Positions 4,132 to 64,000 of a stretch of DNA of 64,000 nt are shown here, piece by piece; position 1 is the first letter of the stretch, and the number at the start of each line of letters is the position of its first letter. The position numbers and the translations under genes were made by a program. Source of the stretch: Thermodesulfobacteriota bacterium (lineage in GTDB: Bacteria > Desulfobacterota_D > UBA1144 > Nemesobacterales > Nemesobacteraceae); contig OY763921.1 in the NCBI GenBank assembly GCA_963667625.1, positions 713,963 through 777,962 of the forward strand, read 5' to 3'. The notes under the pieces were generated by a model. That model saw nothing but the letters and a program-made list of their open reading frames with translations. It was not told the DNA's origin and searched no databases.

Positions 4132-4992
4132 ATGTCTAACGTAGCACAAATAGTCAAAATGATTGCCGATGACTTCTATGGCGGTGACCTTAATCTATCC
4201 GAGAGGGGCATAGTATCTTACGACTCATGGTCGCAAATGCCGGATGTAAAATTTGTTGAGGAGATGAGAGCTTCCGGCAAGTCCGAACGCACCGTGCGCC
4301 TGTTTCTGACTTTCGTTTCTGCAATGGACCGCATGCGAGAGGCAAACAGTTTGTGGAAAGTGGCAGCGGAACTTTTCAGGTCACGTCCGGAATTCTTCGA
4401 GCCCGCCGAGGTAGTAAAAATTCCTCTGGAAACCCTTAAGTCACTTCTGAGTGAGAGCGGGGTAAGCAAGTACCACACACAGGACTCAGAAGCCTGGCAC
4501 GTTATTTCTGCCAGCTTGGTCTTGAATGATAGTCCGATCCGACGCGTAATAGAAAGTGGACATGGAGACGCCGAGGAATTACTGAAAGCGCTTAGGAGCA
4601 GGGACGAGACGGATCGCTTCAGATTTCCGCTTCTTCGCGGTCCGAAGATAGGGGCGATGTGGGTCCGGATCATGGCGAACCCGGGTGGAGCTGAGATAGA
4701 GCGCATAGAAAAGGTTCCCGTAGCGGTGGATGTTCAGGTTCGCCGTGCGACTGAGAATCTGGGGATCGCAAACACGCGAGGGCAGAAGCTCAGAGAAGCA
4801 AAACCGAAGATCCAAAAAGCCTGCCACGGAGCGGTTGCCCAGACCGATATAGGGGGACCGCCTAGGATTGCGGGAACAAGTGCGGCGCTTGATCCAGTGC
4901 TGTGGTTCTACGGCAAGTATGGTTGCAGTCATTGCGAAAAGGCAGGTAAGCAAATGCATATAAGTAGAGCTTGTAACCACTGTCAGCTTTAG
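4132..4992 (+). CDS. HhH-GPD-superfamily DNA glycosylase/lyase-like protein with C-terminal 4-Cys cluster
   Basis: FPLLRGPKIG (HhH-like), PVAVDVQVRR (Asp motif), C-terminal CSHC...CNHC. Confidence 0.6.
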   Translation: MSNVAQIVKMIADDFYGGDLNLSERGIVSYDSWSQMPDVKFVEEMRASGKSERTVRLFLTFVSAMDRMREANSLWKVAAELFRSRPEFFEPAEVVKIPLETLKSLLSESGVSKYHTQDSEAWHVISASLVLNDSPIRRVIESGHGDAEELLKALRSRDETDRFRFPLLRGPKIGAMWVRIMANPGGAEIERIEKVPVAVDVQVRRATENLGIANTRGQKLREAKPKIQKACHGAVAQTDIGGPPRIAGTSAALDPVLWFYGKYGCSHCEKAGKQMHISRACNHCQL

Positions 4993-38707: not shown

Positions 38708-38711
38708 TTTT

Positions 38712-38796
38712 TCCTCCTTAAGTTTAAAAAGAAACTACTGTTTCCCGATTTTGTACTCGGGAAACCCTGAAAAATTTCTTTACTGCTTTAGGAGGA
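38712..38796 (-). promoter_or_regulatory. SD-sequestering nested hairpin downstream of leader ORF 1
   Basis: UCCUCCUAAAG (38786-96) pairs with CUUAAGGAGGA (38712-22); AAAGAAAU (38774-81) pairs with GUUUCUUU (38728-35); inner 9-bp stem at 38740-65. Confidence 0.75.
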
Positions 38797-39072
38797 GAGG
38801 GGAGGTCCGCGGGTGATTCCCGCATCGTAATTGTCCCGAACGATTATAACGTCAGTGGGTGACTGTGGGATGTGTTCCGCATGGCGAAGAACACAGGCCC
38901 CACTCATGGCGCCGGGACTTGTGTAGTCCTGATACTTGGCGTTAAGACAGATCTCGCAGGCAGTTCCCTCATGTTCGTGTTCCAAGGAACCGTACTCGGC
39001 CGCATGGACAAAGGAGAACATCTGCGCTCCCAGGAAAGCGATTGTCAGTAGTAAGGAAAGTGCCTTGCTCAT
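38788..39072 (-). CDS. DUF2946/CutF/CruR-like secreted leader peptide with CxxC and C-terminal RGPP
   Basis: Signal peptide ending VHA, HEHEGTACEIC, ends ITRGPPLSS*. Confidence 0.8.
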   Translation of the reverse strand: MSKALSLLLTIAFLGAQMFSFVHAAEYGSLEHEHEGTACEICLNAKYQDYTSPGAMSGACVLRHAEHIPQSPTDVIIVRDNYDAGITRGPPLSS

Positions 39073-48910: not shown

Positions 48911-51850
48911 ATGTCTGGGAAAGAAAATAAAGGAAAAAACGGCATGAAGAGAAGGGATTTTCTGAAAGTGCTCGGGGTAGCCGGCGGTACGGCAGCAGTT
49001 GCCGGAAGCTGTTCGGAGCCCGTGGAGCAGATAATCCCTTACGTTATTCCTCCTGAGAACGTCATTCCTGGGGTACCCAAGTTCTACGCGACGACCTGCA
49101 GGGAGTGCTCGTCGGGCTGCGGTCTCGTGGTGAAGAACCGCGAGGGACGCGCCATCAAGGTTGAAGGCAACCCCGAAAGCCCTATAAACAGCGGAAAGAC
49201 GTGCGCCATGGGACAGGCTTCCCTGCAGGGTCTTTACAATCCCGACAGGGTCCGTTCCCCGCTCAGATGCAACACTGAGACACAGAGACTCGAACCCATA
49301 GGCTGGGAGCGGGGTGAAGAAATACTCGCGGAAAAGTTAAATTCTCTCGGCTCGGGGAAGATCGTCTATTTGAGCAACAACGTTTCGGGAACTTACTCGA
49401 AGTTCGTGGCGGAATTCCTGAGACCTCTCGGAGGAAAGCATTACGTTTACGAGACTTTTTCCCACGAACCCATCAGAAAAGCGAATTCAATTGTTTTCGG
49501 AAGAGACGAAATCCCTTCCTACAGGATAGACAAAGCGGACTACCTTCTCTCATTCGGGGCCGATTATCTTGAAACGTGGCTCTCCACTGTTTCAAACTCC
49601 ATAGGATATTCAAAGCTAAGAGACATCGATCACGGGAAAACCGGCCAGGTCGTTCATATAGAACCGCGTTCCGGAATGACGGCTTCAAACGCCGATACGT
49701 GGGTCGCGGCGAAACCTGGCACGGAACAGTACCTCGCTCTCGGGATTGCCAACGTTATGATCTCGAAAGGTCTTAACAAGGTTGCCCCGGGGCCGATAGC
49801 CAGAATGGTTTCAGGTTACACGCCCGAAAAAGTTGCGGCGCTCACCGACGTATCCGCCGACACCATAAAGAAAATCGCCCGGGACTTCGCGGCCTCAAAA
49901 AGCCTGGCGATAGGAGGCGGAGCGGCCAACACGGGATCGAACGCCACCGAGACCATGGTTGCCGTAAACATATTGAACTACCTTGCCGGAAACATAGGCA
50001 AGACGGTTGATTTCTCAGATCCCCTTTCAATCTCGGATGCAAGCACCTTCGGCGACATGAAGAAACTGGTGGAGGAAATGAGGTCGGGCAAGGTGGAGAT
50101 TCTCATTGTCCATAACGTAAACCCGGTTTTCACGCTTCCGGGGGAACTCAACGTTGCCGAGGCACTCGAAAAAGTGCCGTTTGTCGTAAGCCTCTCTTCA
50201 TTCCTTGATGAGACTTCCGAGAAAGCGCATCTCGTGCTTCCCGAAAACACTTCTTTTGAGAGCTGGGGAGACTACAGCCCGAAAAAGAGTGTTACCGGGA
50301 TCACTCAGCCCGTCATGAGACCGGTTTTCAATACCAAATCCGCGGGCGATACGCTGATCTCCGTTTCAAAGAATGTAGAGGCGCTTAAAAACACGTTTAC
50401 AGAGAAAAAATACTACGACTATCTGAGAAGCGCCTGGAAGAAGAGGGCAGCGGTTCTCTCTCCGGGAACAAGCTTCGAGAAGTTCTGGGAAAAACTTCTC
50501 GTGAAAGGTTCGTTAACGACCACTCCTGCACCCGTCAATGTAGCTCTTTCTTCCAAAATAAGTTCCGTTTCTTTCCGCGACCCGCAGTTCCGCGGAGAAG
50601 GGGATTTCCACCTGATTGCTTACCCGTCCCACAGATTTCTTGACGGAAGGGGAGCGAACAAGCCGTGGCTTCAGGAACTTCCCGATGCTCTTACCACTTC
50701 GGTCTGGGATTCATGGCTTGAGGTAAATCCCGCGATCGCGGCGAAAATGGGTCTTGAAGACGGTTCCTACGTGAAGGTTGATACCCCAGGGGGAAGTTTC
50801 GAGGTACAGGTTTTCGTCTATGAGGGAATAAGGCCGGATACGATCGCCATTCCACTTGGACAGGGACACACTTCCTACGGAAGGTATGCGAAGGGAAGAG
50901 GGGTGAACCCCTTTGCCCTGCTGCCGGCGGCTACCGACGCGCTTTCAGGAGGACCCTCGCTGCTTTCAACCAAGGCGAACGTTTCATCGCTTAGAAAAAG
51001 AGACCTGCTTGTAAGGACACAGTACACAAAGAGCCAGGGAGACAGGCACGTTGCCAAGACCGTCGCCCTTGACCAGATTGGTCATCATAACGGCGCTCAT
51101 GGAGCGGACCACTCTAAGCACCCTGACTTCTACCCAGAAAAGGAATACTCCAAATACAGGTGGGGAATGGCCATAGACCTTAACAAGTGCACGGGATGCG
51201 GAGCCTGCGTGACCGCGTGTTCCGCGGAGAACAATATTCCCTTCGTAGGAAAGAAGCAGATCGCCAAGCGTCGCGAGATGAACTGGATCCGCATAGAGAG
51301 ATTCTTTGAGAAAAACAGCGACGGAAGCCTTGACGTAAGATTTCTGCCCATGCTCTGCCAGCAGTGCGGAAACGCCCCCTGCGAGCCCGTATGTCCTGTT
51401 TTCGCGACTTACCACAATCAGGAAGGGCTAAACGGCATGATATACAACCGCTGCGTGGGCACGAGGTACTGTGCGAACAACTGCACATACAAGGTAAGAA
51501 GGTTCAACTGGTATACCTATAAGTTCCCCGAGCCGCTTAACTGGCAGCTTAATCCCGATGTGACCGTAAGGTCCAAGGGTGTAATGGAGAAATGCACTTT
51601 CTGCGTTCAGAGAATAAATCACGGCAAGGATCTTGCCAAGGATGAAGGAAGGCTTCTTCGCGACAGAGAGGTTCTCACGGCCTGCGAGCAGGCTTGCCCG
51701 AGCGACGCGATAGTGTTCGGCAACCTGATTGACGACAAAAGCAGGGCGTCGGTGCTCTCTGAGGACGATAGGGGCTACAAGGTTTTGGAAGTGGTAAACA
51801 CTAAGCCCGCGATTACCTATCTTAAGAAAGTCAAACAGGAAAGAGTGTAA
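48911..51850 (+). CDS. actB: Alternative complex III ActB (molybdopterin-oxidoreductase-like plus Fe-S domain)
   Basis: Tat motif RRDFLK; CTGCGACVTAC, CQQCGNAPCEPVCP, CVGTRYCANNC, GVMEKCTFCVQR, CEQACP. Confidence 0.92.
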   Translation: MSGKENKGKNGMKRRDFLKVLGVAGGTAAVAGSCSEPVEQIIPYVIPPENVIPGVPKFYATTCRECSSGCGLVVKNREGRAIKVEGNPESPINSGKTCAMGQASLQGLYNPDRVRSPLRCNTETQRLEPIGWERGEEILAEKLNSLGSGKIVYLSNNVSGTYSKFVAEFLRPLGGKHYVYETFSHEPIRKANSIVFGRDEIPSYRIDKADYLLSFGADYLETWLSTVSNSIGYSKLRDIDHGKTGQVVHIEPRSGMTASNADTWVAAKPGTEQYLALGIANVMISKGLNKVAPGPIARMVSGYTPEKVAALTDVSADTIKKIARDFAASKSLAIGGGAANTGSNATETMVAVNILNYLAGNIGKTVDFSDPLSISDASTFGDMKKLVEEMRSGKVEILIVHNVNPVFTLPGELNVAEALEKVPFVVSLSSFLDETSEKAHLVLPENTSFESWGDYSPKKSVTGITQPVMRPVFNTKSAGDTLISVSKNVEALKNTFTEKKYYDYLRSAWKKRAAVLSPGTSFEKFWEKLLVKGSLTTTPAPVNVALSSKISSVSFRDPQFRGEGDFHLIAYPSHRFLDGRGANKPWLQELPDALTTSVWDSWLEVNPAIAAKMGLEDGSYVKVDTPGGSFEVQVFVYEGIRPDTIAIPLGQGHTSYGRYAKGRGVNPFALLPAATDALSGGPSLLSTKANVSSLRKRDLLVRTQYTKSQGDRHVAKTVALDQIGHHNGAHGADHSKHPDFYPEKEYSKYRWGMAIDLNKCTGCGACVTACSAENNIPFVGKKQIAKRREMNWIRIERFFEKNSDGSLDVRFLPMLCQQCGNAPCEPVCPVFATYHNQEGLNGMIYNRCVGTRYCANNCTYKVRRFNWYTYKFPEPLNWQLNPDVTVRSKGVMEKCTFCVQRINHGKDLAKDEGRLLRDREVLTACEQACPSDAIVFGNLIDDKSRASVLSEDDRGYKVLEVVNTKPAITYLKKVKQERV

Positions 51851-53181
51851 TGAGCCAGACGCAGCAGACACCTTTAACTTACGCGAGAATAACTGAAGAT
51901 GTAGTCAGGATGGTTGACAAGCCGTCCAAGAAGTGGTGGGCTCTTTTCCTTCCCACAGTGGCGCTCGTGGGACTCGGTGTCACGTGCTTTTTCTATCAGG
52001 TAGCTACGGGACTTGGAGTCGCCGGCTACCGTCACCCGGTTTTCTGGGGAGTCTACATAACCGATTTCGTTTTCTGGGTTGGAATAGCGCACTCCGGGAC
52101 CCTTATCTCGGCCATACTTTATCTTTTCCGCGCCAGGTTCAGGATGTCCATATACAGAATCGCCGAGGCCATGACGGTCTTCGCGGTTCTAACGGCAGGA
52201 CTTTTTCCCATAATTCACCTCGGAAGACCGTGGAACTTCCTGTGGCTAATCCCTTATCCCAATTCAAGGGAGCTGTGGATAAACTTCAAGTCGCCGCTTG
52301 TCTGGGACGTGTTTGCTGTAAGTACTTATCTTACCGTAAGCTCGGTGTTTTTCCTGGTCGGAATGATTCCCGATATCGCTGCGATAAGGGACAAGGTGAA
52401 GGAAACTCCGAGGAAGATCATATACTCGATTCTTTCCTTCGGATGGAAAGGGTCAAACAAGGAATGGCTTCACTACACAAGGGCCTATCTTTATTTCGCG
52501 GCCCTCGCCACGCCTCTTGTCCTCTCGGTTCACAGCGTCGTGTCCTGGGACTTCGCGATGGGTAACGTTCCCGGATGGCACACCACAATATTCCCGCCGT
52601 ACTTCGTTGCGGGAGCTATTTTCTCGGGACTTGCGATGGTTATCACGCTTACCGTACCGATAAGGAAGATTTTCCATCTCGAGGACTACATAACGCTTGA
52701 TAACTATGACGGCATGGCGAAGCTCATAATTTTTACTTCCTGCATAGTCGGCTACGCGTACGCGGCGGAATTCTTTATGGCATGGTACAGCGGAAGTCCT
52801 TATGAGTGGGGACAGTTCGTTTACAGGGCAACCGGAGAGTACGCGCCTTTCTACTGGACGATGGTGATATGCAACTGCTTCGTTCCCATAGTGCTCTGGT
52901 GGGAGAGCGTGAGAAAGAACATAAAGGCCCTTTTCGTCATATCCATACTGATAAACATAGGAATGTGGTTCGAGCGGTTCAATATCATCGTCATATCGCT
53001 TTCGAGAGATTTTGAGCCCGGCGCGTGGGGCATATACAAGATATCGTTTGTCGAGGCCGGCATAACGATCGGAAGTTTCGCATGGTTCTTCATGTTCTTC
53101 TTGCTGTTCGTGAAGACTCTTCCGGCAGTTTCCATAGCGGAGATGAAAGAAATACTTCCGGTGCCGAAGAAGGGAGGTTAG
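51850..53181 (+). CDS. actC: Alternative complex III ActC (NrfD family quinol-binding subunit)
   Basis: FVFWVGIAHSGTLISA, HLGRPW, SPLVWD, SVHSVVSWDF, PGWHTTIFPPYFVAGA. Confidence 0.93.
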   Translation: MSQTQQTPLTYARITEDVVRMVDKPSKKWWALFLPTVALVGLGVTCFFYQVATGLGVAGYRHPVFWGVYITDFVFWVGIAHSGTLISAILYLFRARFRMSIYRIAEAMTVFAVLTAGLFPIIHLGRPWNFLWLIPYPNSRELWINFKSPLVWDVFAVSTYLTVSSVFFLVGMIPDIAAIRDKVKETPRKIIYSILSFGWKGSNKEWLHYTRAYLYFAALATPLVLSVHSVVSWDFAMGNVPGWHTTIFPPYFVAGAIFSGLAMVITLTVPIRKIFHLEDYITLDNYDGMAKLIIFTSCIVGYAYAAEFFMAWYSGSPYEWGQFVYRATGEYAPFYWTMVICNCFVPIVLWWESVRKNIKALFVISILINIGMWFERFNIIVISLSRDFEPGAWGIYKISFVEAGITIGSFAWFFMFFLLFVKTLPAVSIAEMKEILPVPKKGG

Positions 53182-53187
53182 CAGGAA

Positions 53188-53694
53188 ATGGATCAGGGCG
53201 TAGTCGGAATTTACTCATATCAGGATTCGGTTCTTTCGGCCGTGGAGAAACTCAAGGAAGCGGGTTACCGCAACATGAGGGTTTTCTCCCCGTTTCCAGA
53301 CCACGAAATTGAGGCGGCGGTTGATCTGCCTGAGAGCCCGGTACGGTTTTTTACCCTCTTCGGCGGTCTGCTGGGAGCGACCTGCGGAGTCGGTTTTACG
53401 GTTCTTACTTCAAGTGCCTGGCCGATAGCGGTGAGCGCCAAACCTATAGTTTCGATACTTCCCTACATGGTCATCGTTTTTGAGCTTACGGTGCTTTTCG
53501 GTGCGCTTTCAACCTTTTTGGGGCTGATAATAAATTCCCTTATAAGGCAGAGAACCCCGGTGAGGCTTTATGACGAGCGTTTTTCGGATGACAAGTTCGG
53601 CGTCGCCGTTATATGCGAGAAGGAAAAAATAGGTGCGGTTGAAGCGATATTAAATTCTACGGGAGCTGAAGAAATCAAGTTTGATGAAGCATAG
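53188..53694 (+). CDS. actD: Alternative complex III ActD (DUF3341)
   Basis: FSPFP, FELTVLFGAL, RFSDDKF. Confidence 0.9.
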   Translation: MDQGVVGIYSYQDSVLSAVEKLKEAGYRNMRVFSPFPDHEIEAAVDLPESPVRFFTLFGGLLGATCGVGFTVLTSSAWPIAVSAKPIVSILPYMVIVFELTVLFGALSTFLGLIINSLIRQRTPVRLYDERFSDDKFGVAVICEKEKIGAVEAILNSTGAEEIKFDEA

Positions 53695-54265
53695 AAAGTT
53701 TTCTCGGACAGTTCCGGGGGGATCCCGGGTTCTCAATTTTTCTTTGAGACTGAAAGTGTGCGTGGCGGTTGTTTTTGCGGTCGCGCTTTCGCTTTCTTCC
53801 GCCCATTCGCTTCCCTGGTCTTGGGACATGTGGTCTCAGGACTCGATCAAGCCCTACGAAGAACCCGTGATTTTTCCTCGCAACTCGATTTCCACCGACG
53901 GCGAGAAAACAAAACTTGGGGACAGAAGCAAGGTCGAGCTTATAGAGAAGGCCCCGGTTACCCGAAGCGGCGAGTCGGTTGCCAGGGGAGAGAAGGTTTA
54001 CAAGGAGCAGTGCGCCGTGTGCCACGGTCCCGGGGGATTGGGAGACGGAATCATAATAAAGAAAGGACTAGGCTTTTACCCGGTCAACCTTACCACGCCG
54101 GCCGTAGCGCAGAGAACAGACGGTTACATCTATGCCTACATACGCTACGGGGGCAAGGTGATGATGCCTTCTTACAGTGAGAACATATCGGAACAGGACG
54201 CGTGGCACGTGGTCAATTACGTGAGAAAGCTTCAGAACCCGGGTTCTGTGAAGGAGAATCAATAG
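53681..54265 (+). CDS. actE: Alternative complex III monoheme cytochrome c ActE
   Basis: CAVCH, GKVMMPSY, WHVVNYVRKLQ. Confidence 0.88.
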   Translation: MMKHRKFSRTVPGGSRVLNFSLRLKVCVAVVFAVALSLSSAHSLPWSWDMWSQDSIKPYEEPVIFPRNSISTDGEKTKLGDRSKVELIEKAPVTRSGESVARGEKVYKEQCAVCHGPGGLGDGIIIKKGLGFYPVNLTTPAVAQRTDGYIYAYIRYGGKVMMPSYSENISEQDAWHVVNYVRKLQNPGSVKENQ

Positions 54266-54269
54266 CAAA

Positions 54270-55448
54270 ATGGATCAGTCCGTAAACCAGGAGATACTAG
54301 CGAAAAGAAACCAGATACCTAAATGGGTATTCATGGTTTTTGTCGCTCTTGCGATTGTGGGTGCCGGAGCTTTCGTGATTAACGCCAGGGGCGAGAAGGC
54401 CGAAGAGGTCTGGCAGCTTTTCTTGGTGAATTTTCTTTTCTGGACGGGAGTGGCCCAGGGCGGCCTTGTGTTCTCCTGCATACTGAGGATAACCAACGCC
54501 AGATGGGGCAGGGGGCTTCTTCGCATAAGCGAGGGGTTTGCGAGCTTTACCATAGTCTCCTTCGTGCTTCTGCTTGTTCTTTTCATCGGACAGGAATTTG
54601 TTCTTCCCTATGCGCATCATCACTACCACAGCCCCAAGGACATATGGCTTAACATGAATTTCGTGATGGCGAGAAACGTTATAGGTTTCGCAGGACTTTT
54701 AGTGCTTAATTATTTCTACCTGAAAACATCCATACGCCAGGACCTTGATGGCAGGGAAAACATTGTAAAGTTAAAGAAGCTTGCCCCTGCGGTAATCGGG
54801 GTCTACGTTCTTGTTTTCTCCCTTTTCGCCTGGGATTTCATGATGTCGCTTGATCCTCACTGGTTCAGCACGCTTTTCGGGCCCTACTATTTCATGGGAA
54901 GCCTGATAGCTGCCATAGGGGCGACTATAATACTTTCGGTTCCCATCAAGCGTTATCTGGGACTTGATGAGTATCTTTCTCTTCATCATTACTGGGATAT
55001 GGGAAAGATACTTCAGGGTTTTTCTCTTTTCTGGGTTTACCTCATGTTCTCCCAGCTTCTTACGATCTGGTACGCGAACATGCCTGAAGAGACCGGGTTT
55101 GTGATAAAAAGGGTGGTGGATGAGCCTTTCCGCTCGTTTGCCTGGGCTATTCTCACATGCTGCTTCATATTTCCTTTTGTCTCCCTGCTTCCCCGCACGC
55201 ACAAGATAGTTACCCCGATAGCTGTCTTTATCGCTACGGTTTCTTTCTCGGGACTCTGGATGGACAAGTTCCTGCTGATCATCCCCTCGCTTACAAGCGA
55301 GCTGGTTTTCAGCATCAATCACTTCCTGATCACCCTGGGTTTTCTTGCCGGATTCGTGGCGACATTTCTTATGTTTGTAAACAGGTTCCCGGTAATACCT
55401 TTCGGCGACCCGTACTTTGACGGAAAATCGAAGGGAGGAGGGCATTGA
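54270..55448 (+). CDS. actF: Alternative complex III ActF
   Basis: MSLDPHWFSTLFG, DMGK, FWVYLMFSQ...IWYANMPEE. Confidence 0.92.
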   Translation: MDQSVNQEILAKRNQIPKWVFMVFVALAIVGAGAFVINARGEKAEEVWQLFLVNFLFWTGVAQGGLVFSCILRITNARWGRGLLRISEGFASFTIVSFVLLLVLFIGQEFVLPYAHHHYHSPKDIWLNMNFVMARNVIGFAGLLVLNYFYLKTSIRQDLDGRENIVKLKKLAPAVIGVYVLVFSLFAWDFMMSLDPHWFSTLFGPYYFMGSLIAAIGATIILSVPIKRYLGLDEYLSLHHYWDMGKILQGFSLFWVYLMFSQLLTIWYANMPEETGFVIKRVVDEPFRSFAWAILTCCFIFPFVSLLPRTHKIVTPIAVFIATVSFSGLWMDKFLLIIPSLTSELVFSINHFLITLGFLAGFVATFLMFVNRFPVIPFGDPYFDGKSKGGGH

Positions 55449-55449
55449 G

Positions 55450-55599
55450 ATGAAGCTTACACCTGAGCAGCTTGACAAAATAGTTCTTCTTTTCACCGTG
55501 AAAGTTGCTATCGGCATCGCGGCTTTTATGGGCATAGTGGCTACCGTAGCGCTTTTCGGCACCAAGATAGCTCCATTGATGGGCAAACTTCCCTGGTAA
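55450..55599 (+). CDS. Small single-TM protein at the end of the act operon, 49 aa
   Basis: ATG 1 nt after the actF stop; hydrophobic core VLLFTVKVAIGIAAFMGIVATVALF. Confidence 0.65.
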   Translation: MKLTPEQLDKIVLLFTVKVAIGIAAFMGIVATVALFGTKIAPLMGKLPW

Positions 55600-55732
55600 C
55601 CCCGATCTCACTCCCGTTGTGCCTAAACTAGGCGCGATAGAACATCTATTGAGACGCCTCGGTCGAAACCAGATATAATTTCCGCGCGGGTTTTTCCCGT
55701 TTTTCTTAAATATATCTTCTAAGGAGTTTTCC

Positions 55733-56083
55733 ATGTCCAAAGACGCCGAAATCAAGCTGAGGGTAGTCCTAGGGGAGGACGATATTCCCGAGGAGCTTTT
55801 CTGGCAGGCTTCCCAGGCTCAGGAACCTGGGGAGAAGCGCTGCGAGGCGGCTTTTCTTTCCATGTGGGATGCCGAGAAAAAGGAATCCCTGGTAGTAGAT
55901 CTTTGGACCAAGAAAATGGAAGTGGGGGAAATGAACTACCATTTCTACTATACGATGATGAAAATGGCCGACACATATGAAAGAGCTACCTCCGAGAAGC
56001 AGATATCGAACAGAATGAGAGAATTCGCAGGCGAGTTCGCCCAGATGATTCAGGAGTCTTTGGGAAGCCAGAAAAATTCCTGA
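55733..56083 (+). CDS. gldC: GldC family protein
   Basis: PEELFWQA, FLSMWD...VDLWTKKMEVGEMN.HFY.TM..MADTYERAT. Confidence 0.75.
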   Translation: MSKDAEIKLRVVLGEDDIPEELFWQASQAQEPGEKRCEAAFLSMWDAEKKESLVVDLWTKKMEVGEMNYHFYYTMMKMADTYERATSEKQISNRMREFAGEFAQMIQESLGSQKNS

Positions 56084-56111
56084 CCAACCTCCCTAGCGCT
56101 TTGCAGGCTAA

Positions 56112-56139
56112 GGAAATGCCGGTTTTCTCCGACATTTCC
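56112..56139. terminator. Hairpin between convergent gldC and the merT-like gene
   Basis: GGAAATG-c-CGG-ttttct-CCG-a-CATTTCC; no clear U-tract. Confidence 0.45.
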
Positions 56140-56162
56140 CTAATCTCAAGACCCAAAAGAAA

Positions 56163-56558
56163 TCAGTAAAAAACTCTCGCGGCTATAAAAGCGAAGAAAA
56201 AGCCTACGAGCCATAGAAGCACGGATAGCAGATATATCCAGTTGCTTGTCTTTCGTAATCTGGCACATGCCATTGCCTGCGCCGGGTCAATCGGGCAGGG
56301 AGCGTTTCTTGACCTCCAAAGCGCGACTCCGGCGATTAGAAGCATTGCGCCGGAGATTCCGAACGTCCAGATCTTGTATTTTGACAACGCGATCAGCCAG
56401 GGTGCGGTTCCTACGATTCCCGCCAGAACCGCGCCGGCTCCGATCGTCACTAATAATGCGGGAAGGGCGCAGCACACAAGGGTTCCAGCGGACGTAAGCA
56501 GACTGAGCGAGGGGAGAAGCGTTTGCTTCACTCCATATCCGGGATTCGTGTTATCCAT
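56163..56558 (-). CDS. MerT/MerC-like inner-membrane metal transporter (start reassigned to 56558)
   Basis: TLVCCALP in TM1, loop CPIDPAQAMAC, three TM segments. Confidence 0.75.
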   Translation of the reverse strand: MDNTNPGYGVKQTLLPSLSLLTSAGTLVCCALPALLVTIGAGAVLAGIVGTAPWLIALSKYKIWTFGISGAMLLIAGVALWRSRNAPCPIDPAQAMACARLRKTSNWIYLLSVLLWLVGFFFAFIAARVFY

Positions 56559-56934
56559 GCTCGCACCCCCTCTGAATGGCATTCACGTTGTACCCGGAGT
56601 CCGTGATAAGCTTCGTAAGCGTTGCATCGTCAATGGTCAATCCGGGCTTCGTAGCTACAGCTACGAAGCCTTTGCCGAGATCAACCTTGATTCCCGCAAC
56701 ATCGCCGCGTTTCAGGAAGACTTTTTCCAGGGAACGAGCGCAGAAATCGCATACAAGCCCGCTGACCTTGATATTGATTGTGTCTTCACATGCGGCGTTT
56801 TCCATGTCGTTTGAAGCGGCGGAGGGCTCTACCACCTGACCTTCATGGTTATGTTCGTGTTCTCCATGTTGCGCATGGCTATGGAGCGCGAAAAAAAGTG
56901 TCATAAAAAGAATTGCGGTGATTGATATTTTCAT
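56551..56934 (-). CDS. Periplasmic HMA-domain (MerP/CopZ-like) chaperone with His-rich N-terminus
   Basis: Signal peptide, HSHAQHGEHEHNH, KVSGLVCDFC. Confidence 0.85.
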   Translation of the reverse strand: MKISITAILFMTLFFALHSHAQHGEHEHNHEGQVVEPSAASNDMENAACEDTINIKVSGLVCDFCARSLEKVFLKRGDVAGIKVDLGKGFVAVATKPGLTIDDATLTKLITDSGYNVNAIQRGCEHG

Positions 56935-56944
56935 AGTTTTCTCC

Positions 56945-57592
56945 TTAAAATCTTATTATTAAATTGAACAAAATCCCACCTTTGTCGCTGATTCCGACCT
57001 CAACGAGATACTCGTTCTTAAAAAACCGTACAAGAGGCGTAACCGAGATGTTATCTCTCTCCCCCGTGATGTGGTCAACTTGCAGCATGAGCCAGGTGTG
57101 GAGATCGCCGTAGTCCCCGATATAAGGGGCGATTCCCACTCGCGCTTTCTGCCTGAAGAACTTCGCTATGTCTTCGGCGTAGTAGACGCGGTTCTCATAG
57201 CTCGTAAAGTACCGTCGAGTTTCCCAGTCAAGGGCTATATCGGCAAAGGCGGCGAGCTGGGGTTCGCTGTCGGGCACTCCAAGATCACCGTGAGCTGTGC
57301 CAAGGCCGCCTTTAAGATAGAAGTTTGCCTGCGAGGCTGGCGCGTTGTGGCGCTTCACCAGATAGTTAAGCTGCGCGCCGTGGAACTGCCAATTCTCCTC
57401 GCGCCAGTATTCGGTTCTGTATCCTATCGAATACTTAGCCGTCGGCGAATAATGAACGTGAAGAGAATGCGCGTTCTTGTCGTTTTTCTGCATGACCGTC
57501 CAGCCGCCCGGATACGAGACCGGACGAGACAGGGACTGGGGAGCGTATCCCATCAGGATCACGCAACATAAAGTGAAAACTGTTAATTTCAT
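56945..57592 (-). CDS. Putative small outer-membrane beta-barrel (start reassigned to 57592)
   Basis: RBS AGGAGG; signal peptide; alternating aromatic strands; C-terminal Phe (FNLIIRF). Confidence 0.65.
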   Translation of the reverse strand: MKLTVFTLCCVILMGYAPQSLSRPVSYPGGWTVMQKNDKNAHSLHVHYSPTAKYSIGYRTEYWREENWQFHGAQLNYLVKRHNAPASQANFYLKGGLGTAHGDLGVPDSEPQLAAFADIALDWETRRYFTSYENRVYYAEDIAKFFRQKARVGIAPYIGDYGDLHTWLMLQVDHITGERDNISVTPLVRFFKNEYLVEVGISDKGGILFNLIIRF

Positions 57593-57597
57593 GTTTC

Positions 57598-57678
57598 CTC
57601 CTGAGTATCGATTATGGCCTGGCGACGCCGAAGCGAAGCCGTTTATAGCGCGCGGGCGCGCGCAAGTTTGCTCAGGAG
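57598..57678 (-). promoter_or_regulatory. SD-sequestering multibranch structure downstream of leader ORF 2
   Basis: CUCCUGAG (57671-78, spanning the leader stop) is the exact complement of CUCAGGAG (57598-605, the RBS); encloses a GCGCGC stem (57648-63) and a cUUCGg hairpin (57621-40). Confidence 0.75.
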
Positions 57679-58022
57679 AGGCGTTTTGGAGGTCGGAAAT
57701 GGGTTTCGATCTGGCGGGAGGACAGAAGCTGATCGGCAAGAATTCCGACAGCAGTTCCCCCATGATGATCTTTTAATTCTTCAAGTGGCAGTGCGTTTGT
57801 CTGGACACAATGCTGGCAATCACAGCCATCGCATTGATCGGAGCTTCTATCTTCCGAATCTTTTGTTTCATGGCATGGCATGTCCATGTCGGCGTCCATC
57901 TGTATTTCGGCGGAAGCCTTGTCCATGTTCATTGGACATGTGGAGAAAGCGTTCGCCATGCCGCCGGTAAAAAACAATGCGACAAATGTTACCAGTAGTA
58001 CTGTTGTTTTAATGGTGTCCAT
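57672..58022 (-). CDS. CopL/DUF2946-like secreted Met/Cys/His-rich leader ending FRPP
   Basis: Signal peptide ending ANA, MDADMDMPCH, CDGCDCQHC, ends HFRPPKRLS*. Confidence 0.75.
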   Translation of the reverse strand: MDTIKTTVLLVTFVALFFTGGMANAFSTCPMNMDKASAEIQMDADMDMPCHETKDSEDRSSDQCDGCDCQHCVQTNALPLEELKDHHGGTAVGILADQLLSSRQIETHFRPPKRLS

Positions 58023-58134
58023 ATCCTAACTATAAACTATTCACTTTTAGCTCAAACTTCAATGGCAAAGGTTCGAAAGAACCAGGTTACGCGGGAGTGT
58101 TTGCAGATTAATGAAGAACTGCAATGGCCCGTCT

Positions 58135-59067
58135 TTATCTGAATTCGGGTATTACCTCTTTTGCGAAAAGCTCTATGGTTGAGGGATTCATCACGTCGGA
58201 GAAGAAGATCGTGTATTTGGATATTCCTTTCTCCAGATCTGCGTTGATCTTTTTTACGCAGTCTTCCGGGGTTCCCACGATCCCGAGTTTTTCTATGTCT
58301 CCGAAGAATCCGTAGCGTCTCTGGGCCTTTTCGAGTTTTTCGGGGAGATCTTTTCTGTCCTTAACCAGAACGCAGACGGTCTGCTGGGATATCGTTATAT
58401 CTTCTATGTCTCTCCCGACTTCCTCGCAGTGCTTACTGAGTATCGAGTGCTTGCGGTCAAATTCAATTGCGCTTGTCGCAGGACAGTTCCATTCATCGGC
58501 GAGTTCTGCCACTGCCCTTAAAAGGAATCTTTCTCCGGAACCCCCGATGCATACTGGAATATGGGGACGCTGAACGGGCTTGGGGTTGCAAAGCGCGTTT
58601 TCCACCTTGTAATGTTTGCCCGAAAAAGAGGCGGTTTCCTCAGTCCACATCAGTTTGAGTATCGTGACCGCTTCTCTAAGCATCTCTATTCTTTCTTTCG
58701 TTGAAGGGAAGGGATATCCGTAAGCGCGAAATTCCTCTTCAAACCAACCGGCTCCTATTGCGAACTCAACCCGCCCGTTGCTTATTACGTCGAGTGTTGA
58801 AGCCATCTTGGCAAGCAGGGGAGGGTACCTGAATGGGTTGCAGAGCACCATCGTTCCGAGCTTAACATTTTCCGTTACTGTCGAGAGCGCGGACATTAGA
58901 GTCCAGGGTTCATAGATGTCGATACCGATTATTCCCTGACCTAGAACATGATCGTAGAACCAAACGGAATCATATCCGGTCGAGTCGCATAACTGCGCCG
59001 CGGCCTTTATGTCTTCAAAATCTATTTTCTGCTGTCTCAGCATTACTCCAAATTCGGGTCTGCCCAT
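58135..59067 (-). CDS. LLM-class (luciferase-like) flavin/F420-dependent oxidoreductase
   Basis: FYDH, EPWT, LAKMASTLDVISNGRVEFAIGAGW, PKPVQRPH, IGGSGE. Confidence 0.88.
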   Translation of the reverse strand: MGRPEFGVMLRQQKIDFEDIKAAAQLCDSTGYDSVWFYDHVLGQGIIGIDIYEPWTLMSALSTVTENVKLGTMVLCNPFRYPPLLAKMASTLDVISNGRVEFAIGAGWFEEEFRAYGYPFPSTKERIEMLREAVTILKLMWTEETASFSGKHYKVENALCNPKPVQRPHIPVCIGGSGERFLLRAVAELADEWNCPATSAIEFDRKHSILSKHCEEVGRDIEDITISQQTVCVLVKDRKDLPEKLEKAQRRYGFFGDIEKLGIVGTPEDCVKKINADLEKGISKYTIFFSDVMNPSTIELFAKEVIPEFR

Positions 59068-59318
59068 TGTCTGTCTCCGTTTTTTGGTGTTCGTGCGGGG
59101 TGTAAAGCGCACGGGTAATTATCCCTTTAGCTGAAGACGCTGTAAACACGGCGCTGCCTCTTTTGCTTGCAAATAAAAGTTCACTGTTTCGCTTCTTTGT
59201 GCTATCATTACGGGCGACGGGGAAAAAGAAAGCCGGCAGTGCCTGGAGAGCTTTTTACCGCCTGTTTTAGATAGAACAAATTCCGTTTCTTCTTAAATCT
59301 ACGATCCAGAGGTTTCCA

Positions 59319-59933
59319 ATGAAAAACGCAACTGTTTTCGTTCTATGTTTTATTTTCGCTTTGATTGCTTTTCCCGGTGACGGGTACTCTAGTTCCGATT
59401 CCAGTAATAACAAAAATACGTCCGCTAAATCGAGCGGCAAGAAAGAAAGGAGAAAACCAATGGTTCTGATTTCAACTTCGCTGGGCGACATAAAACTCGA
59501 GCTTTATGAAGAAGAGGCGCCGATTACCGTGGCCAATTTTCTTTCCTACGTGGAAGAAGGATTTTACGACAGCACCATATTTCACAGGGTGATAAATAAT
59601 TTCATGATACAGGGTGGCGGCATCACCGCGGACATGAAACAAAAGCCGACTAAAGCCCCGATAAAGAATGAGGCCGATAACGGTCTTAAAAATGAACGCG
59701 GCACCATAGCAATGGCTAGGACCGCCGAGGTTAATTCCGCGACGTCGCAGTTTTTTATAAATCACAGGGATAACGCTTTTCTTGACCATGGTACCCGCGA
59801 TTTCGGTTATGCGGTGTTCGGAAAAGTGGTTGAGGGAATCGAAATTGTTGACAAAATCGCCGCTGTTCAGACCAGACCGGGAGATGTTCCCGTCGAGACG
59901 GTGTCTATTTTGTCCATGAAGGTCGTCAATTAA
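59319..59933 (+). CDS. Exported cyclophilin-type peptidyl-prolyl isomerase
   Basis: Signal peptide; [35 protein letters not shown]. Confidence 0.94.
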
Positions 59934-59951
59934 CAGACGGCCTCTTTTTTC

Positions 59952-60995
59952 GTGTCGGAAAAAACTACTTACAAGAGCGCCGGTGTTGACGTGGAGGAAG
60001 GCGAGAGGTTCGTGCGGCTTATAAAACCTCTCGTTGAGTCGACCTACGGCGAGAGCAAAGTAAGCCCGCTCGGGGGTTTTGCGGGCGCTTTTCCGCTTGA
60101 TACGGACACTTTTCGCGAGCCACTGCTTGTATCCGCCACAGACGGGGTCGGCACAAAACTCAAAACGGCCTTCTCCGTGCGCAAATTCGATACGATAGGC
60201 ATAGATCTGGTTGCCATGAGCGTTAACGACGTGATTACGTGTGGCGCGAAACCTCTGTTTTTTCTTGATTATCTGGCTACCTCAAAGCTCGATTCAGAGC
60301 AGGCGGCCGAGGTGGTGAAGGGTATCTGCGAGGGATGCGTCCAGGCCGGATGCGTACTTATCGGGGGTGAGACGGCGGAGATGCCCGGATTTTACGCCGA
60401 GGGGGAGTTTGATCTTGCGGGTTTCTGTGTCGGAGTGGTGGAGAAAGATCTATATATTGACGGCGCCGGGGTAGGGCCAGGCGACGCGCTCATCGGGCTT
60501 GCTTCAAGCGGTCTTCATTCAAACGGCTACTCGCTTGCGAGAAAGGTGTTTTTTGATATTGGAGACTACTCGATTGATTCAAAACCCCAGAGCCTCTCGA
60601 AAACCCTTGGAGAGGAACTTCTCGAACCCACGGTCATATACTCAAGGGTCGTTATCGGGCTCTGCGGAGAATTCGACGTAAAAGCCCTTGCCCACGTGAC
60701 GGGCGGCGGGATTCCGGGAAATCTCTCAAGAGTCATTCCTGACGGGCTTTTTGCGGCAATTGATAGCAAGAGCTGGCAAGCTACTCCCATTTTTGACCTG
60801 ATAATGAAAACCGGGAACATAAGCCGCGACGAGATGTACTCGACGTTTAACTGCGGGGTGGGAATGATAGCGGTGCTGCCGCAGGAACAGGCCGAAGAAG
60901 CTTTGTCATTCACGCGGAACCTATCGGAAGCGGCTTACCTTATCGGCGAGATAAAGAAAACTGGCACCCCCGGCCTCAAGGTCCGCATTCTCTGA
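59952..60995 (+). CDS. purM: Phosphoribosylformylglycinamidine cyclo-ligase
   Basis: YKSAGVD, TDGVGTK, GGETAEMPG, SSGLHSNG, HVTGGG, TFNCGVG. Confidence 0.97.
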   Translation: MSEKTTYKSAGVDVEEGERFVRLIKPLVESTYGESKVSPLGGFAGAFPLDTDTFREPLLVSATDGVGTKLKTAFSVRKFDTIGIDLVAMSVNDVITCGAKPLFFLDYLATSKLDSEQAAEVVKGICEGCVQAGCVLIGGETAEMPGFYAEGEFDLAGFCVGVVEKDLYIDGAGVGPGDALIGLASSGLHSNGYSLARKVFFDIGDYSIDSKPQSLSKTLGEELLEPTVIYSRVVIGLCGEFDVKALAHVTGGGIPGNLSRVIPDGLFAAIDSKSWQATPIFDLIMKTGNISRDEMYSTFNCGVGMIAVLPQEQAEEALSFTRNLSEAAYLIGEIKKTGTPGLKVRIL

Positions 60996-61005
60996 GAGCG
61001 CGGGT

Positions 61006-61899
61006 TCAGTTGTAGTACCTAACCCACTTGGGAAGCTTGTAATCGAAAGTGGCTGGTATCTTTAGTTTTTCTTCCTCCCAACTCTTGGGGAAGGGATTGT
61101 AAGGGGAGGCAATTCTTATTGTCCGCAGCACTTCCCTGTCCAGGTTCTCGAAACCGGAAGGCTGAATTATTCTCACGTTTTCAAGATATCCGTCTTTTCT
61201 TAGCGTAAAAACGATCCGCACGTTTCCCTGTTCCCTTCTTGCCTGTGATTCCTTGGGGTATTTCCAGACCTGGTAGATTCTCTCTTTCAGTTTCGTGAAA
61301 TATGAGATGTACTTGTATTCCGTCGTGTTAAGATCAACGGTGATTTCCTTCTCGACGTCTTTGGTCCCAAGAAGCTGTTCTTCTGTATTGTAGTCGAAAG
61401 GAACGTCCGCTATCTTGGGGTTGACCATCTGCGAAGCGGAAGCGCTCGGGGTGCTTCCGGGCCGTTGGTCGGGACTGGCCTTTCTTTTTTCGGGTCTGTT
61501 TCTTTCTCCCTCGGGTATAATGGCGACCCGGTCTTTTTCGGGAGAGAACCTCTCAGCGCTCTTTTCCTGTTCTCCGGGTTGAATCGCTCCCGCGGGTTTT
61601 CTTTGCACCGTGCTTTTCTTTGTCGGTTGGGGAGAGGACCTTGAGAGTTTCGTCGTGTCATCTATCGTAGTCTCTTTTTCCGCCCTGTGAGACTTGTCGG
61701 CGAGTCTTGACGGCTTGTCAGGAGGCTCAGTCTCTTTAACTGGTATCTCTATAAGTTCTATGAACGTTTTATCAAGCGCAGGCTTGAGACTTTCGGGATC
61801 GGGCAGTATCTCTGAGAAAAGAAACTGGATCAGCAGCAGATTTAGCACGGCTGAGATCAGAAGAAAAACCGGGAAAGGGACTTTTCTGTTCCTGTTCAT
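61006..61899 (-). CDS. TonB/TolA-family energy transducer
   Basis: N-terminal TM, charged Pro-containing linker, C-terminal YPKES...GNVRIVF...SGFENLD...ASPYNPFP. Confidence 0.82.
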   Translation of the reverse strand: MNRNRKVPFPVFLLISAVLNLLLIQFLFSEILPDPESLKPALDKTFIELIEIPVKETEPPDKPSRLADKSHRAEKETTIDDTTKLSRSSPQPTKKSTVQRKPAGAIQPGEQEKSAERFSPEKDRVAIIPEGERNRPEKRKASPDQRPGSTPSASASQMVNPKIADVPFDYNTEEQLLGTKDVEKEITVDLNTTEYKYISYFTKLKERIYQVWKYPKESQARREQGNVRIVFTLRKDGYLENVRIIQPSGFENLDREVLRTIRIASPYNPFPKSWEEEKLKIPATFDYKLPKWVRYYN

Positions 61900-61939
61900 C
61901 GGGGTTTACCAGTGTTTTGCCGTGTGGTAGGCAGGCCTT

Positions 61940-62968
61940 TTATATCTTCAGTATATTCTGTATCAGAACCCTGGCAAAGTCGGCCGTTTTGAGGTTGCCT
62001 CCAAGGTCCCGGGTCTTCTCGCCGTTTGAAAGGGCTATGTTGTAAGCTGTTTTTATCTTGTCGGCAGCTTCTCTCATATCCTCTCTTCCTTCTGAATCGG
62101 CCAGATACCTGAGCATCATTACCGCTGACATTATTAGAGCGAGCGGATTCGCTATTTCGAGTCCCGCTATATCCGGCGCAGACCCATGCACCGCTTCAAA
62201 GACCGAGTATTCATCCCCTATATTGGCGCCGGGAACAACGCCGAGTCCTCCGACAAGGCCGGCGCAGAGGTCGCTCATCACGTCGCCGTAGAGGTTTTCA
62301 AGCAGCAGCGTATCAAACATGGCCGGATCCTGAACCAGTCTCATGCATCCCGCGTCTATGATGTACTCTTCATACTCGATGTCCGGATACTGTTCGCTTG
62401 CCTCCCTTGCCTTGCTGATAAAAAGACCGTCGGTGATCTTCATTATATTGGCCTTGTGAAACACGGTTATCTTTTTTCTGCCTCTTTTTCTCGCGTACTC
62501 AAAACCCCATCTGGCGATTCGCTCGCATGCTCTCTCGGTTGCGACCTTCATGCTCATCACGACCCCGGGGGAAACCGTGTTTTCAACGCCACTGTAAAGA
62601 CCTTCGGTGTTCTCGCGCACGATGACTATGTTAACGTCGGAGAATCTGGTTCTCACGCCCTCAATGCTTCGTACCGGCCTTACAGCGGCGTACAGGTCAA
62701 GTTTTTTTCTAAGTTCCACATTTACCGATGAAAACCCCTCTCCTATGGGGGTCGTGCATGGGCCCTTAAGCGCGACTTTATGTTCCCTTATGGCGTCCAG
62801 AGTGACTTCCGGCAGGACTTCGTGGTACTTTTCTAGAGCCGATACGCCGGCCCCTCTTATGACCCATTCGATCTTGGCTCCGGAAGCGGCAATGACGTTC
62901 TTTGTCGCTTCGGCGATTTCCGGGCCGATACCGTCTCCTGGGATTAAAACGACTTTTCTAGCACTCAT
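61940..62968 (-). CDS. Isocitrate/isopropylmalate dehydrogenase family (NAD-IDH-like)
   Basis: [45 protein letters not shown]. Confidence 0.9.
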
Positions 62969-63094
62969 AATCTGTACGTGTGATACGGTTTGAAACCAGG
63001 TTTCTATGAAGCATATATGTTCTTAATGTGGCAAGTTACGTGCCAACAAATCACTTTCCGTGCCCGCATATCCGCGAAGCTTTTGTAAGGCACT

Positions 63095-63676
63095 TCAGCC
63101 CAGTTTTTTTAGAAGCAATACCCCAACCAAAAGCAGTATGAAAAATATAACCGTAAATATGTTGAAGTATTTGTCGATAAGCAATTTTACTCTCTCTCCG
63201 AAAATCGAAAGAAGACAAGCGACTATCGCAAATCTGGCCGTTCTTCCCACCGCGCAGGCGGCTATGAACGTCGGGAAGTCGACCTTGAAGACTCCCGCAG
63301 TTACGGTGAACGCCTTAAAGGGTATGGGAGTGAAGGCCGCGGCCAGAACGGCTTCAAATACATTTTCTGAGTATTTGTCGCTTACCGTGGCGAAGGCCTC
63401 TGCGGTTACGATGTGTGAGGTAAAAAAGTCCCCGACAAGCTCCCACACCCAGTATCCTATGAGATACCCGGCTGCCGCTCCCAGTATGGAAAAAACGGAG
63501 CAGTAAAGAGCGAAGCGATATGACTTTCTGGGGTTTCCGAGACATAGCGCCATGAGAAGAGGGTCTGGAGGTATGGGAAAAAAAGATGCTTCCGTGAAGG
63601 AAACCAGGGAAAGTGCGAAGGGACCATGCTTTCTGTCCGCCCAGCCCAGAACCCATTCGTAAAGGCTTTTAAGCAT
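63095..63676 (-). CDS. YqaA/DedA (VTT) family membrane protein
   Basis: EASFFPIPPD, FTPIPFK, GRTARF. Confidence 0.9.
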   Translation of the reverse strand: MLKSLYEWVLGWADRKHGPFALSLVSFTEASFFPIPPDPLLMALCLGNPRKSYRFALYCSVFSILGAAAGYLIGYWVWELVGDFFTSHIVTAEAFATVSDKYSENVFEAVLAAAFTPIPFKAFTVTAGVFKVDFPTFIAACAVGRTARFAIVACLLSIFGERVKLLIDKYFNIFTVIFFILLLVGVLLLKKLG

Positions 63677-64000
63677 GGTTCTCTAGTTGTTCCCTGAGCT
63701 CTTCTAGGAACCCGTAGTCCGTCATATCAAGCTTTATCGGGGTTATCGAGACGTAGCCTTCAAGAATGGACACTATGTCGGAGTTTTCAATTCTCAGGGA
63801 ATCAAGCTCGTTTCCGCCTATCCAGTAGTACTTTTTTCCTCGGGGATCGGTTTTTTCCACTATTGGTGCTTGATAGACCCTTTTACCTTGGCGCGTAACC
63901 CGTATTCCCTTTACTTCCTCTAGGGGAAGGTTAGGCACGTTCACATTGAGCAGGGTGTTTTCGGGAAGACCGGTTTTAAGAACGAATTCCGCGGCCACCC
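63669..64000 (-). CDS. surE: 5'/3'-nucleotidase SurE, C-terminal part (runs off the window)
   Basis: LNVNVP, DPRGKKYYWIGG, GYVSITPIKLDMT. Confidence 0.9.
   Translation of the reverse strand, partial: VAAEFVLKTGLPENTLLNVNVPNLPLEEVKGIRVTRQGKRVYQAPIVEKTDPRGKKYYWIGGNELDSLRIENSDIVSILEGYVSITPIKLDMTDYGFLEELREQLENHA

Follow-up and report, generated by a model that had tools for sequence, protein, structure and literature searches.

Why should an operon for envelope and metal-handling proteins begin with a small, probably secreted protein whose last codons are complementary to the ribosome-binding region of the next gene? The question is raised by a locus of Thermodesulfobacteriota bacterium (GenBank assembly GCA_963667625.1, contig OY763921.1), of which 64,000 nucleotides (nt), positions 713,963 to 777,962, were analysed (the "window"). 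The first gene, here termed the leader, is an open reading frame (ORF) of 116 codons (57672-58022) for a putatively secreted protein rich in Cys, Met and His. Three genes follow, which encode a predicted outer-membrane β-barrel (56945-57592), a secreted HMA-domain protein (56551-56934) and a distant MerT-like membrane protein (56163-56582). These genes, like all of the features described for the leader, its helix and its hairpins, lie on the minus strand.

The favored answer, to which a probability of roughly two in three is given, is that the leader is a cis-acting, metal-sensing switch of the CutF/CopL/CruR kind, which gates the barrel/MerP-like/MerT-like operon. Its read-out would be a helix, or "clamp", that sequesters the barrel gene's Shine-Dalgarno (SD) sequence. 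Comparison of related loci shows that this clamp exists, that it is under selection at the level of the RNA, and that it accompanies this family of leaders before copper genes of several kinds.

The Shine-Dalgarno clamp and its covariation

The 5' arm of the clamp, the anti-SD UCUCCUGAG (57671-57679), lies across the end of the leader, and the 3' arm, CUCAGGAGG (57597-57605), contains the SD of the barrel gene. Within these arms CUCCUGAG (57678-57671), which spans part of Leu115, Ser116, the stop codon and one further base, matches the reverse complement of CUCAGGAG (57605-57598) exactly, and a U·G pair lengthens the predicted helix to 9 bp (57679-57671 with 57605-57597). The loop between the arms is 65 nt long, and the spacer between leader and barrel gene is 79 nt. 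Two further hairpins are predicted inside the clamp: hairpin 1, GCGCGC-GCCC-GCGCGC, with a GC-only stem (57648-57663), and hairpin 2, GGC..CGC-UUCG-GCG..GCC, with a cUUCGg loop (57621-57640). The clamp and both hairpins together form the predicted minimum-energy structure. An earlier reading of the locus from its letters alone (the sequence-only reading) had described a perfect 8-bp anti-SD across the stop codon, its 65-nt distance from the SD and the two enclosed hairpins, and in each of these it was accurate.

A C/U-rich gene end might complement a purine-rich SD by chance and have no function. Pairing of UCCU with AGGA is indeed readily obtained, and within the phylum of the window (Dadabacteria) the helix is merely invariant. 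However, when the 21 nt around the stop codon were shuffled and the SD region was kept, a Watson-Crick run of at least 8 with the SD region was obtained with P=0.0008, and the other 21-nt windows inside the leader ORF give runs with the SD of at most 6. The probability that the SD of the barrel gene is unpaired is 0.008, versus a median of 0.25, and is tied for the lowest among the 36 SD-bearing genes of the window; the tie is with the SD of the gene after another small ORF, "Leader 1". Chance is also contradicted by compensatory changes across lineages and by the codon used for the terminal Ser, both described below, and can be regarded as very improbable.

Nearly all family members that end in PPKxxS can form a helix of 7-13 bp, in which the last two codons and the stop codon (sometimes with 1-4 more nt) pair with the next SD. 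Those of distant members enclose one or two hairpins of unrelated sequence. Among the relatives (whose loci are given L numbers), the 5' and 3' arms are GUUCCUAAC and GUUAGGAGC in L037, UGUCUCCU and AGGAGACA in L054, UAUCCUAG and CUAGGAUA in L055, UUAUUUCCUAAUA and UAUUAGGAGAUAA in L056, and UAUUUCCUGA and UCAGGAAAUA in L060. The distant loci were obtained by exact-protein look-up and by genome searches centered on the class and order of another genome. Since this second class contains more than 301 species, versus 120 in the whole phylum of the window, it lies outside that phylum.

An alignment of 28 divergent lineages, anchored on the stop codon and AGGA alone, has 83% paired cells, versus 76±1.2% when shuffled and 37-49% in slid registers, and 27 double-change cells, versus 11.3±2.5 when shuffled (0 of 500 shuffles as high). 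Compensatory changes occur at 6 of the 10 clamp pairs. Between the middle base of the stop codon and the base before AGGA the pairs are G-C (7), A-U (13) or G·U (3). The bases 3' of the SD change in step with leader codon -2, whose amino acid varies (L/I/T/F/V) while pairing persists. In a fixed register the helix averages 7.45 bp, versus 6.21±0.20 bp for permuted partners (0 of 10,000). The lineages are related, and thus the shuffle statistics overstate their independence; this is offset by the presence of several pair types at six positions and by the slid-register control, which preserves relatedness.

A further sign of selection on the RNA is the codon of the C-terminal Ser: TCC is used by 27 of 27 non-redundant lineages. 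In contrast, a conserved internal Ser nine residues before the Pro-Pro (PP) pair is encoded by TCA, TCG, TCT and TCC in a ratio of 7:5:4:2 (TCC in 2 of 18). Thus, the terminal Ser appears to be largely a requirement of the RNA (UCC-U with AGGA), which explains an invariant-looking residue that is puzzling as protein conservation. In L069, whose leader ends PPKQ-stop, the anti-SD (CUCCUG) lies just past the stop codon and its distance from PP is retained. The masking of the next SD by the 3' end of the leader, as proposed in the sequence-only reading, is therefore backed both by compensatory changes and by the TCC codon. Covariation of the two arms, which that reading had named as a check, is found in distant relatives, whereas the near-invariance of the clamp within Dadabacteria makes it uninformative there, either way.

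Within Dadabacteria, covariation is limited to the inner hairpins. Codon 115 varies (L/I/T/F), while its third base, the TCC of Ser116 and the UGA are unchanged throughout. Among relatives more widely, hairpins of other sequences stand at the hairpin 1 site in L014, L020, L021, L030, L035 and L037; hairpin 2 has a compensatory C-G to U-A change in L020, and its loops vary (UUCG, CUCG, UUUG, UCCG, UUAG).

A second anti-SD candidate, UCCUCC over Ser101-Ser102 (57717-57722), is predicted to become the partner of the SD once the main anti-SD is blocked. Being conserved in Dadabacteria only, with this Ser encoded by TCA, TCG or TCT elsewhere, it was rejected as a feature of the family.

The leader protein and its relatives

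The leader begins with a predicted Sec signal peptide (residues 1-25, 57948-58022), which by eye consists of K5, a hydrophobic core and an ANA|F cleavage motif. The pattern is conserved, with ANA (nearly) invariant in the alignments, and AlphaFold2 places a helix at residues 3-20. Next comes a Met stretch, M42-DAD-M46-D-M48-P-C-H51, which contains an M-P-C-H motif (residues 48-51, 57870-57881); among 51 divergent relatives, H51 is invariant, and conservation is 94% or higher at P49 and C50. The "MxMxMPCH" of the sequence-only reading is thus present as a Met/MPCH motif, although its correct form is MxMPCH, with MDAD before it. The CxxCxCxxC of the same reading is found as C64-DG-C67-D-C69-QH-C72 (57807-57833), a putative metal site (C64-xx-C67-x-C69-x-H-C72) in which conservation in the same relatives is 94% or higher at C67 and C69. 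The C-terminal segment, S102-x-Q-x-E-x-x-F-x-P-P-K-x-x-S116 (57675-57719), is a putative arrest or pause peptide. In it P111 and P112 are invariant and K113 and S116 are conserved at 80% and 90%; the codons of Pro111-Pro112 (CCU CCA, 57687-57692) are the presumed pause site. The sequence F109-R-P-P112 lies exactly where it had been placed (57698-57687) and is followed, as also read before, by K-R-L-S116 and a UGA stop codon (57674-57672). The mature part of the protein is predicted to be unstructured (AlphaFold2 with 56 sequences; predicted local distance difference test, pLDDT, about 50-60; predicted template modeling score, pTM, 0.23), and the signal-peptide helix is the only secondary structure of the model.

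A word-indexed search returned 38 close homologues of 111-116 amino acids with 55-94% identity to the leader, those with a named source being hypothetical proteins of Candidatus Dadabacteria. A profile search of 1.8 billion representatives added 74 more distant relatives, nearly all of 105-130 amino acids and of a common layout. The leader, which the sequence-only reading had called a peptide, is indeed a small ORF with a predicted export signal; at 116 amino acids it is, however, a small protein of a conserved family (here "PPKxxS", about 110-125 amino acids) rather than a short peptide. The shared layout consists of a signal peptide ending ANA-A, a CC pair, MPCH (His invariant), CxxCxCxHC, a linker, and the C-terminal S-x-Q-x-E-x-x-[FY]-x-P-P-K-x-x-S-stop. 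The 28-residue linker before the C-terminal segment is unconserved in sequence, yet gap-free, and CxxC and PP lie a median of 43 residues apart (interquartile range 42-43). Exactly 4 residues follow PP in 99 of 116 members. The residue before PP is Q in 46, R in 38 and H in 11; since R is unconserved, the family motif is [FY]xPPK, and the RAPP-like ending proposed from the F-R-P-P of this leader does not hold. An arrest of the RAPP type was rejected for the leader on these grounds.

The Pro codons of PP are biased. Among 33 lineages, CCU encodes the first Pro in 21 and CCC the second in 16, whereas these two codons make up 34% and 19% of the other Pro codons in the same ORFs. The bias could reflect a second, weak anti-SD (CCUCC is complementary to GGAGG) or an effect on decoding speed.

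The distribution of the family is patchy. It is present in 31 of 36 genomes of the genus of the window; elsewhere in the phylum, 4 genomes of one other family carry it, and in the unrelated class it occurs in 32 of the 301 genomes of one order. Some of these genomes have 2-3 paralogues. The barrel, with 52-85% identity among relatives, is far better conserved than the leader, and this, together with the patchy distribution, suggests horizontal spread of the cassette. In one related genome (L023:2988-3240 and 4415-4643, OZ252213.1; also G665) the leader gene is split. Its N-terminal 66 residues lie about 1.2 kilobases from the C-terminal part and a 315-amino-acid ORF starts between them, probably because of an insertion into the leader gene. 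The C-terminal fragment retains the clamp.

Similarity to curated families is faint. The leader has no Pfam match at E≤0.1, including DUF2946 (PF11162), and the only curated model that it touches is NCBIfam CopL_fam (NF033807). This match (19.9 bits, E=9e-4, with a cut-off of 40 bits) spans leader residues 13-112 and positions 11-127 of the 129 in the profile. Among 56 relatives there are sub-threshold matches to CopL_fam in 25 (best 1.4e-7), to DUF2946 in 6 (best E=0.005) and to CzcI in 5, and a more remote relative, found with the family profile, reaches 35.3 bits on CopL_fam. The kinship with CopL assumed in the sequence-only reading is consistent with these matches across the family.

A candidate metal-sensing switch and its rivals

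CopL, DUF2946 (which includes CutF and CruR) and CzcI have been united as "CutF-like proteins", defined operationally by a length below 150 amino acids, a PP among the 15 C-terminal residues, a signal for export and a neighboring gene on the same strand beyond a short spacer (PMC9973294). The leader has 116 amino acids, with P111-P112 4 residues from the C-terminus, and its spacer is 79 nt (39-100 nt in relatives). Putative metal-binding motifs, MPCH and CxxCxCxHC, are conserved in the sequence. The masking of the next SD by an RNA structure in the spacer, on which the mechanism of CutF depends, is indicated here by the predicted fold, the covariation and the ranking of the SD within the window. 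The PPKxxS family is not mentioned in the supplements of the CutF paper (PMC9973294).

CutF itself, from the cutFOG operon of Rhodobacter capsulatus, acts only in cis (PMC9973294; bioRxiv 10.1101/2025.02.05.636593). Like the leader, it is a Sec-exported small protein (the export signal of the leader being predicted) encoded first in its operon, with a Cys motif 45 residues before the C-terminal Pro motif (43 in the PPKxxS family) and a short spacer whose RNA structure masks the next SD. Multicopper oxidase genes follow CutF and some PPKxxS paralogues alike. The CutF product cannot be detected in the periplasm or is quickly broken down there. The two differ in the Pro motif (PPP in CutF, [FY]xPPKxxS here), in the Cys motif (CxxxC in CutF, MPCH and CxxCxCxHC here), in the 5' arm of the masking helix, which here consists of the last codons of the leader itself and its stop codon, and in the barrel/MerP-like/MerT-like target, the occurrence in Dadabacteria and the lack of a Pfam DUF2946 match. 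CopL of the Xanthomonas/Stenotrophomonas copLAB operons is likewise a Cys/His-rich small ORF 5' of copper genes and is needed in cis for their expression (as summarized in PMC9973294); the leader differs in its downstream genes and in falling well below the CopL_fam cut-off.

A similar use of a ribosome paused near a stop codon to disrupt an SD-sequestering helix, as proposed here, is made by SecM-secA (and MifM and VemP), although these sense secretion activity rather than metal and have no sequence similarity to the PPKxxS family. In SecM, four residues follow the arrest proline.

By analogy with these systems, the switch would operate as follows. On free mRNA the final one and a half codons of the leader, together with the stop codon and one base beyond it, would pair with the barrel gene's SD, a pair of stable inner hairpins would keep the arms together, and the operon would be poorly translated (OFF). 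A ribosome at the end of the leader would occupy the 5' arm, and the SD would be free for as long as that ribosome stays (ON). The [FY]xPPK motif, four codons before the stop codon, would set the dwell time of the ribosome in response to the binding of metal to the nascent chain, whose putative Cys/His/Met site, connected to the PP segment by a fixed linker of ~43 residues, would be exported during synthesis. The dwell time at the end of the leader would in turn set the duration of SD exposure. The inner hairpins would presumably keep the stop codon and the SD adjacent, allowing quick re-formation of the clamp and leaving a terminating ribosome near the next start. Both the pause at PP and the control of dwell time by metal are carried over from CutF and CruR, and we infer them for the leader on that basis.

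What the switch might sense is suggested by the genes that follow it. Behind the same leader and helix stand genes for multicopper oxidases (L060, L069), OEP/CusC-like genes (L061, L063, L067, L073), a CusB-like gene with an HMBD domain (L074), and a gene for a 57-amino-acid Cys-rich lipoprotein without a family match (L036:433-603; …CGGVCSCPNCTSSHCVCAEKGECTC…), which may be a small metal-binding lipoprotein. More remote relatives of the leader precede OEP-CusB-CusA sets. A leader that is portable across copper genes points to a part in regulation, and to copper as the ligand; by this analogy the ligand is probably a thiophilic metal in the periplasm, most likely copper.

The same portability bears on a rival explanation, in which the leader is a working periplasmic metal-binding relay protein, pausing is not controlled by a ligand, and the clamp only ties translation of the downstream genes to that of the first gene. 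Such plain structural coupling would account for the strong conservation of the metal motifs and for the presence of these three genes after the leader in distant lineages. It would not readily explain why the same leader and helix stand before unrelated copper genes, why PP is invariant and lies 4 codons from the stop codon in 99 of 116 members, with the distance kept in L069 even where the anti-SD has shifted, or why the linker is conserved in length and not in sequence. Furthermore, no fold is predicted for the product, and its similarity leads to the regulatory CopL/DUF2946 proteins.

The effect of ribosome position on the clamp was modeled. Across 38 loci, the SD on free mRNA has a median probability of 0.004 of being unpaired; removal of the stretch that a ribosome would cover with the stop codon in its A site raises this to 0.49, and in the model a terminating ribosome covers the 5' arm of the clamp fully. 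When Pro111 occupies the P site, the helix begins at +13, which places the leading edge of a PP-paused ribosome at the foot of the clamp. The same placement has been shown for the arrested ribosome of CruR, whose P and A sites contain the two Pro codons (PMC12992588).

Several points weigh against a metal-controlled pause, or against the switch as a whole. With Pro111 in the P site the modeled clamp opens only partly, the probability that the SD is unpaired being 0.09-0.28 (0.4 one codon later); thus, termination, rather than a pause at PP, may be the state that opens it, as plain coupling would have it. PPK is not RAPP, RGPP or PPP, and a strong intrinsic arrest is not predicted from it; a weak pause motif in which R is unconserved also favors plain coupling. 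The company of the same three genes in very distant lineages also fits a structural partner protein, and AlphaFold2 is unable to exclude metal-induced folding of the leader. The clamp is nearly invariant, without compensatory change, in 22 Dadabacterial loci, and L014, L016 and L020, also of Dadabacteria, carry uncompensated changes that weaken it. Finally, the leader falls below the cut-off of every curated family model. On balance, plain coupling is considered unlikely, and the metal-sensing switch remains preferred.

If the leader is such a switch, it must still be asked in which direction metal acts. CruR (Bp2923) of Bordetella pertussis, a DUF2946 protein (PMC9426467) in which arrest has been shown (PMC12992588), provides the opposite precedent to the ON sign favored here. 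It is a secreted small upstream ORF, as the leader is predicted to be, with CxxC 45 residues before a PP (PMC9426467) that is a few residues from the stop codon, and controls a transport operon post-transcriptionally in a metal-dependent manner, as is proposed for the leader. Copper, however, relieves the arrest of CruR and turns its operon OFF, and the CruR signal peptide is dispensable. Under such logic the leader would arrest at PP by default, metal would relieve the arrest and shut the operon off, possibly through Rho-dependent termination in the spacer, and the cassette would be a metal-uptake system. CruR, a CutF-like protein, works in this way (PMC9426467), and neither MerA nor an efflux ATPase was found adjoining the operon.

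MerT- and MerP-like proteins, moreover, are importers in mer operons, which agrees with uptake. However, the 79-nt spacer is dominated by a clamp that masks the SD, as in CutF, while the CruR spacer is 162 nt and Rho-dependent; the leader has F-R-P-P in place of the RAPP motif of CruR; and its paralogues precede detoxification genes (multicopper oxidase and Cus genes), which copper should switch on. A CruR-like sign is therefore judged improbable, more so than plain coupling. For the last of these reasons, it is favored, again by analogy, that metal switches the operon ON, which would argue against the barrel/MerP/MerT cassette as a scavenging system.

The principle of such a switch is already published for CutF (PMC9973294; bioRxiv 10.1101/2025.02.05.636593). 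What is new is an unannotated subfamily with its own motifs, its presence in Dadabacteria, a stop-spanning clamp with an RNA-dictated Ser, the evidence from covariation, and the target operon. Nascent-chain metal sensing of the CutF/CruR type would thus be extended to a new phylum and to a subfamily unseen by curated models. The covariation supports the SD-masking helix as a selected read-out, which for CutF is based on mutagenesis of a single locus. It would also follow that the first gene of a widespread, undescribed four-gene envelope metal cassette should be re-annotated as a cis-regulator, and that the cassette is linked to copper. A broader proposal can be made only tentatively: that PPKxxS leaders are a distinct, widespread and unannotated class of nascent-chain copper sensors, standing before at least five kinds of copper genes, with the stop-spanning SD clamp as their read-out, a Ser dictated by the RNA and a fixed distance between PP and clamp, and that in Dadabacteria and the second class the cassette is induced by copper purely at the level of translation, without a transcription factor.

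The cassette and neighboring features

The barrel gene, with its ATG at 57592, encodes 215 amino acids predicted to form 12 strands (AlphaFold2 pLDDT 86). The protein has no Pfam or NCBIfam match above the cut-off, and its best Foldseek matches in the Protein Data Bank are KdgM, NanC and the invasin/intimin barrels. The second gene product is MerP/CopZ-like, with a CDFC motif (Pfam HMA, E=4e-4; CopZ and MerP models sub-threshold), and its gene overlaps by 32 nt the third, whose MerT-like assignment is below the cut-off (Pfam MerT, E=0.017). The four-gene order leader-barrel-HMA-MerT-like recurs in the other class at 30-40% leader identity. In the 96%-complete genome neither a CueR nor a MerA orthologue was found above the cut-off (the best CueR match scores 29.6 bits versus 147), in agreement with the proposal of the sequence-only reading that the switch replaces MerR/CueR.

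The start of the leader has shifted. Most relatives (loci L001-L025) have ATG at codon 4 (MKT...) and GTG, ATG, CGT or GAG at codon 1; in the lineage of the window, L024 and L025, codon 1 is ATG and codon 4 is ATT (58011-58022 in the window). An AGGA lies only 1 nt 5' of the codon-1 ATG, and thus initiation at the leader is perhaps atypical, possibly near-leaderless. A consensus scan 5' of the leader found no σ70-like promoter with normal spacing on the minus strand; TTGAAG-N22-TATA(G/A)T is conserved there in Dadabacteria (58023-58134 in the window). A search of positions 50000-64000 against Rfam (cmscan, E≤1) returned only a chance microRNA match elsewhere and nothing for the spacer.

The window contains a second clamp of the same design. 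BLASTP found no sequence similarity between the leader discussed here ("Leader 2") and Leader 1 (38788-39072, minus strand), which has 94 amino acids and ends RGPPLSS-UAA. Over its last two Ser codons, the terminal one again TCC, and its stop codon, UCCUCCU pairs across a spacer (38708-38787) with the AGGAGGA of the next gene, which encodes a 477-amino-acid, His/Glu-rich outer-membrane protein.

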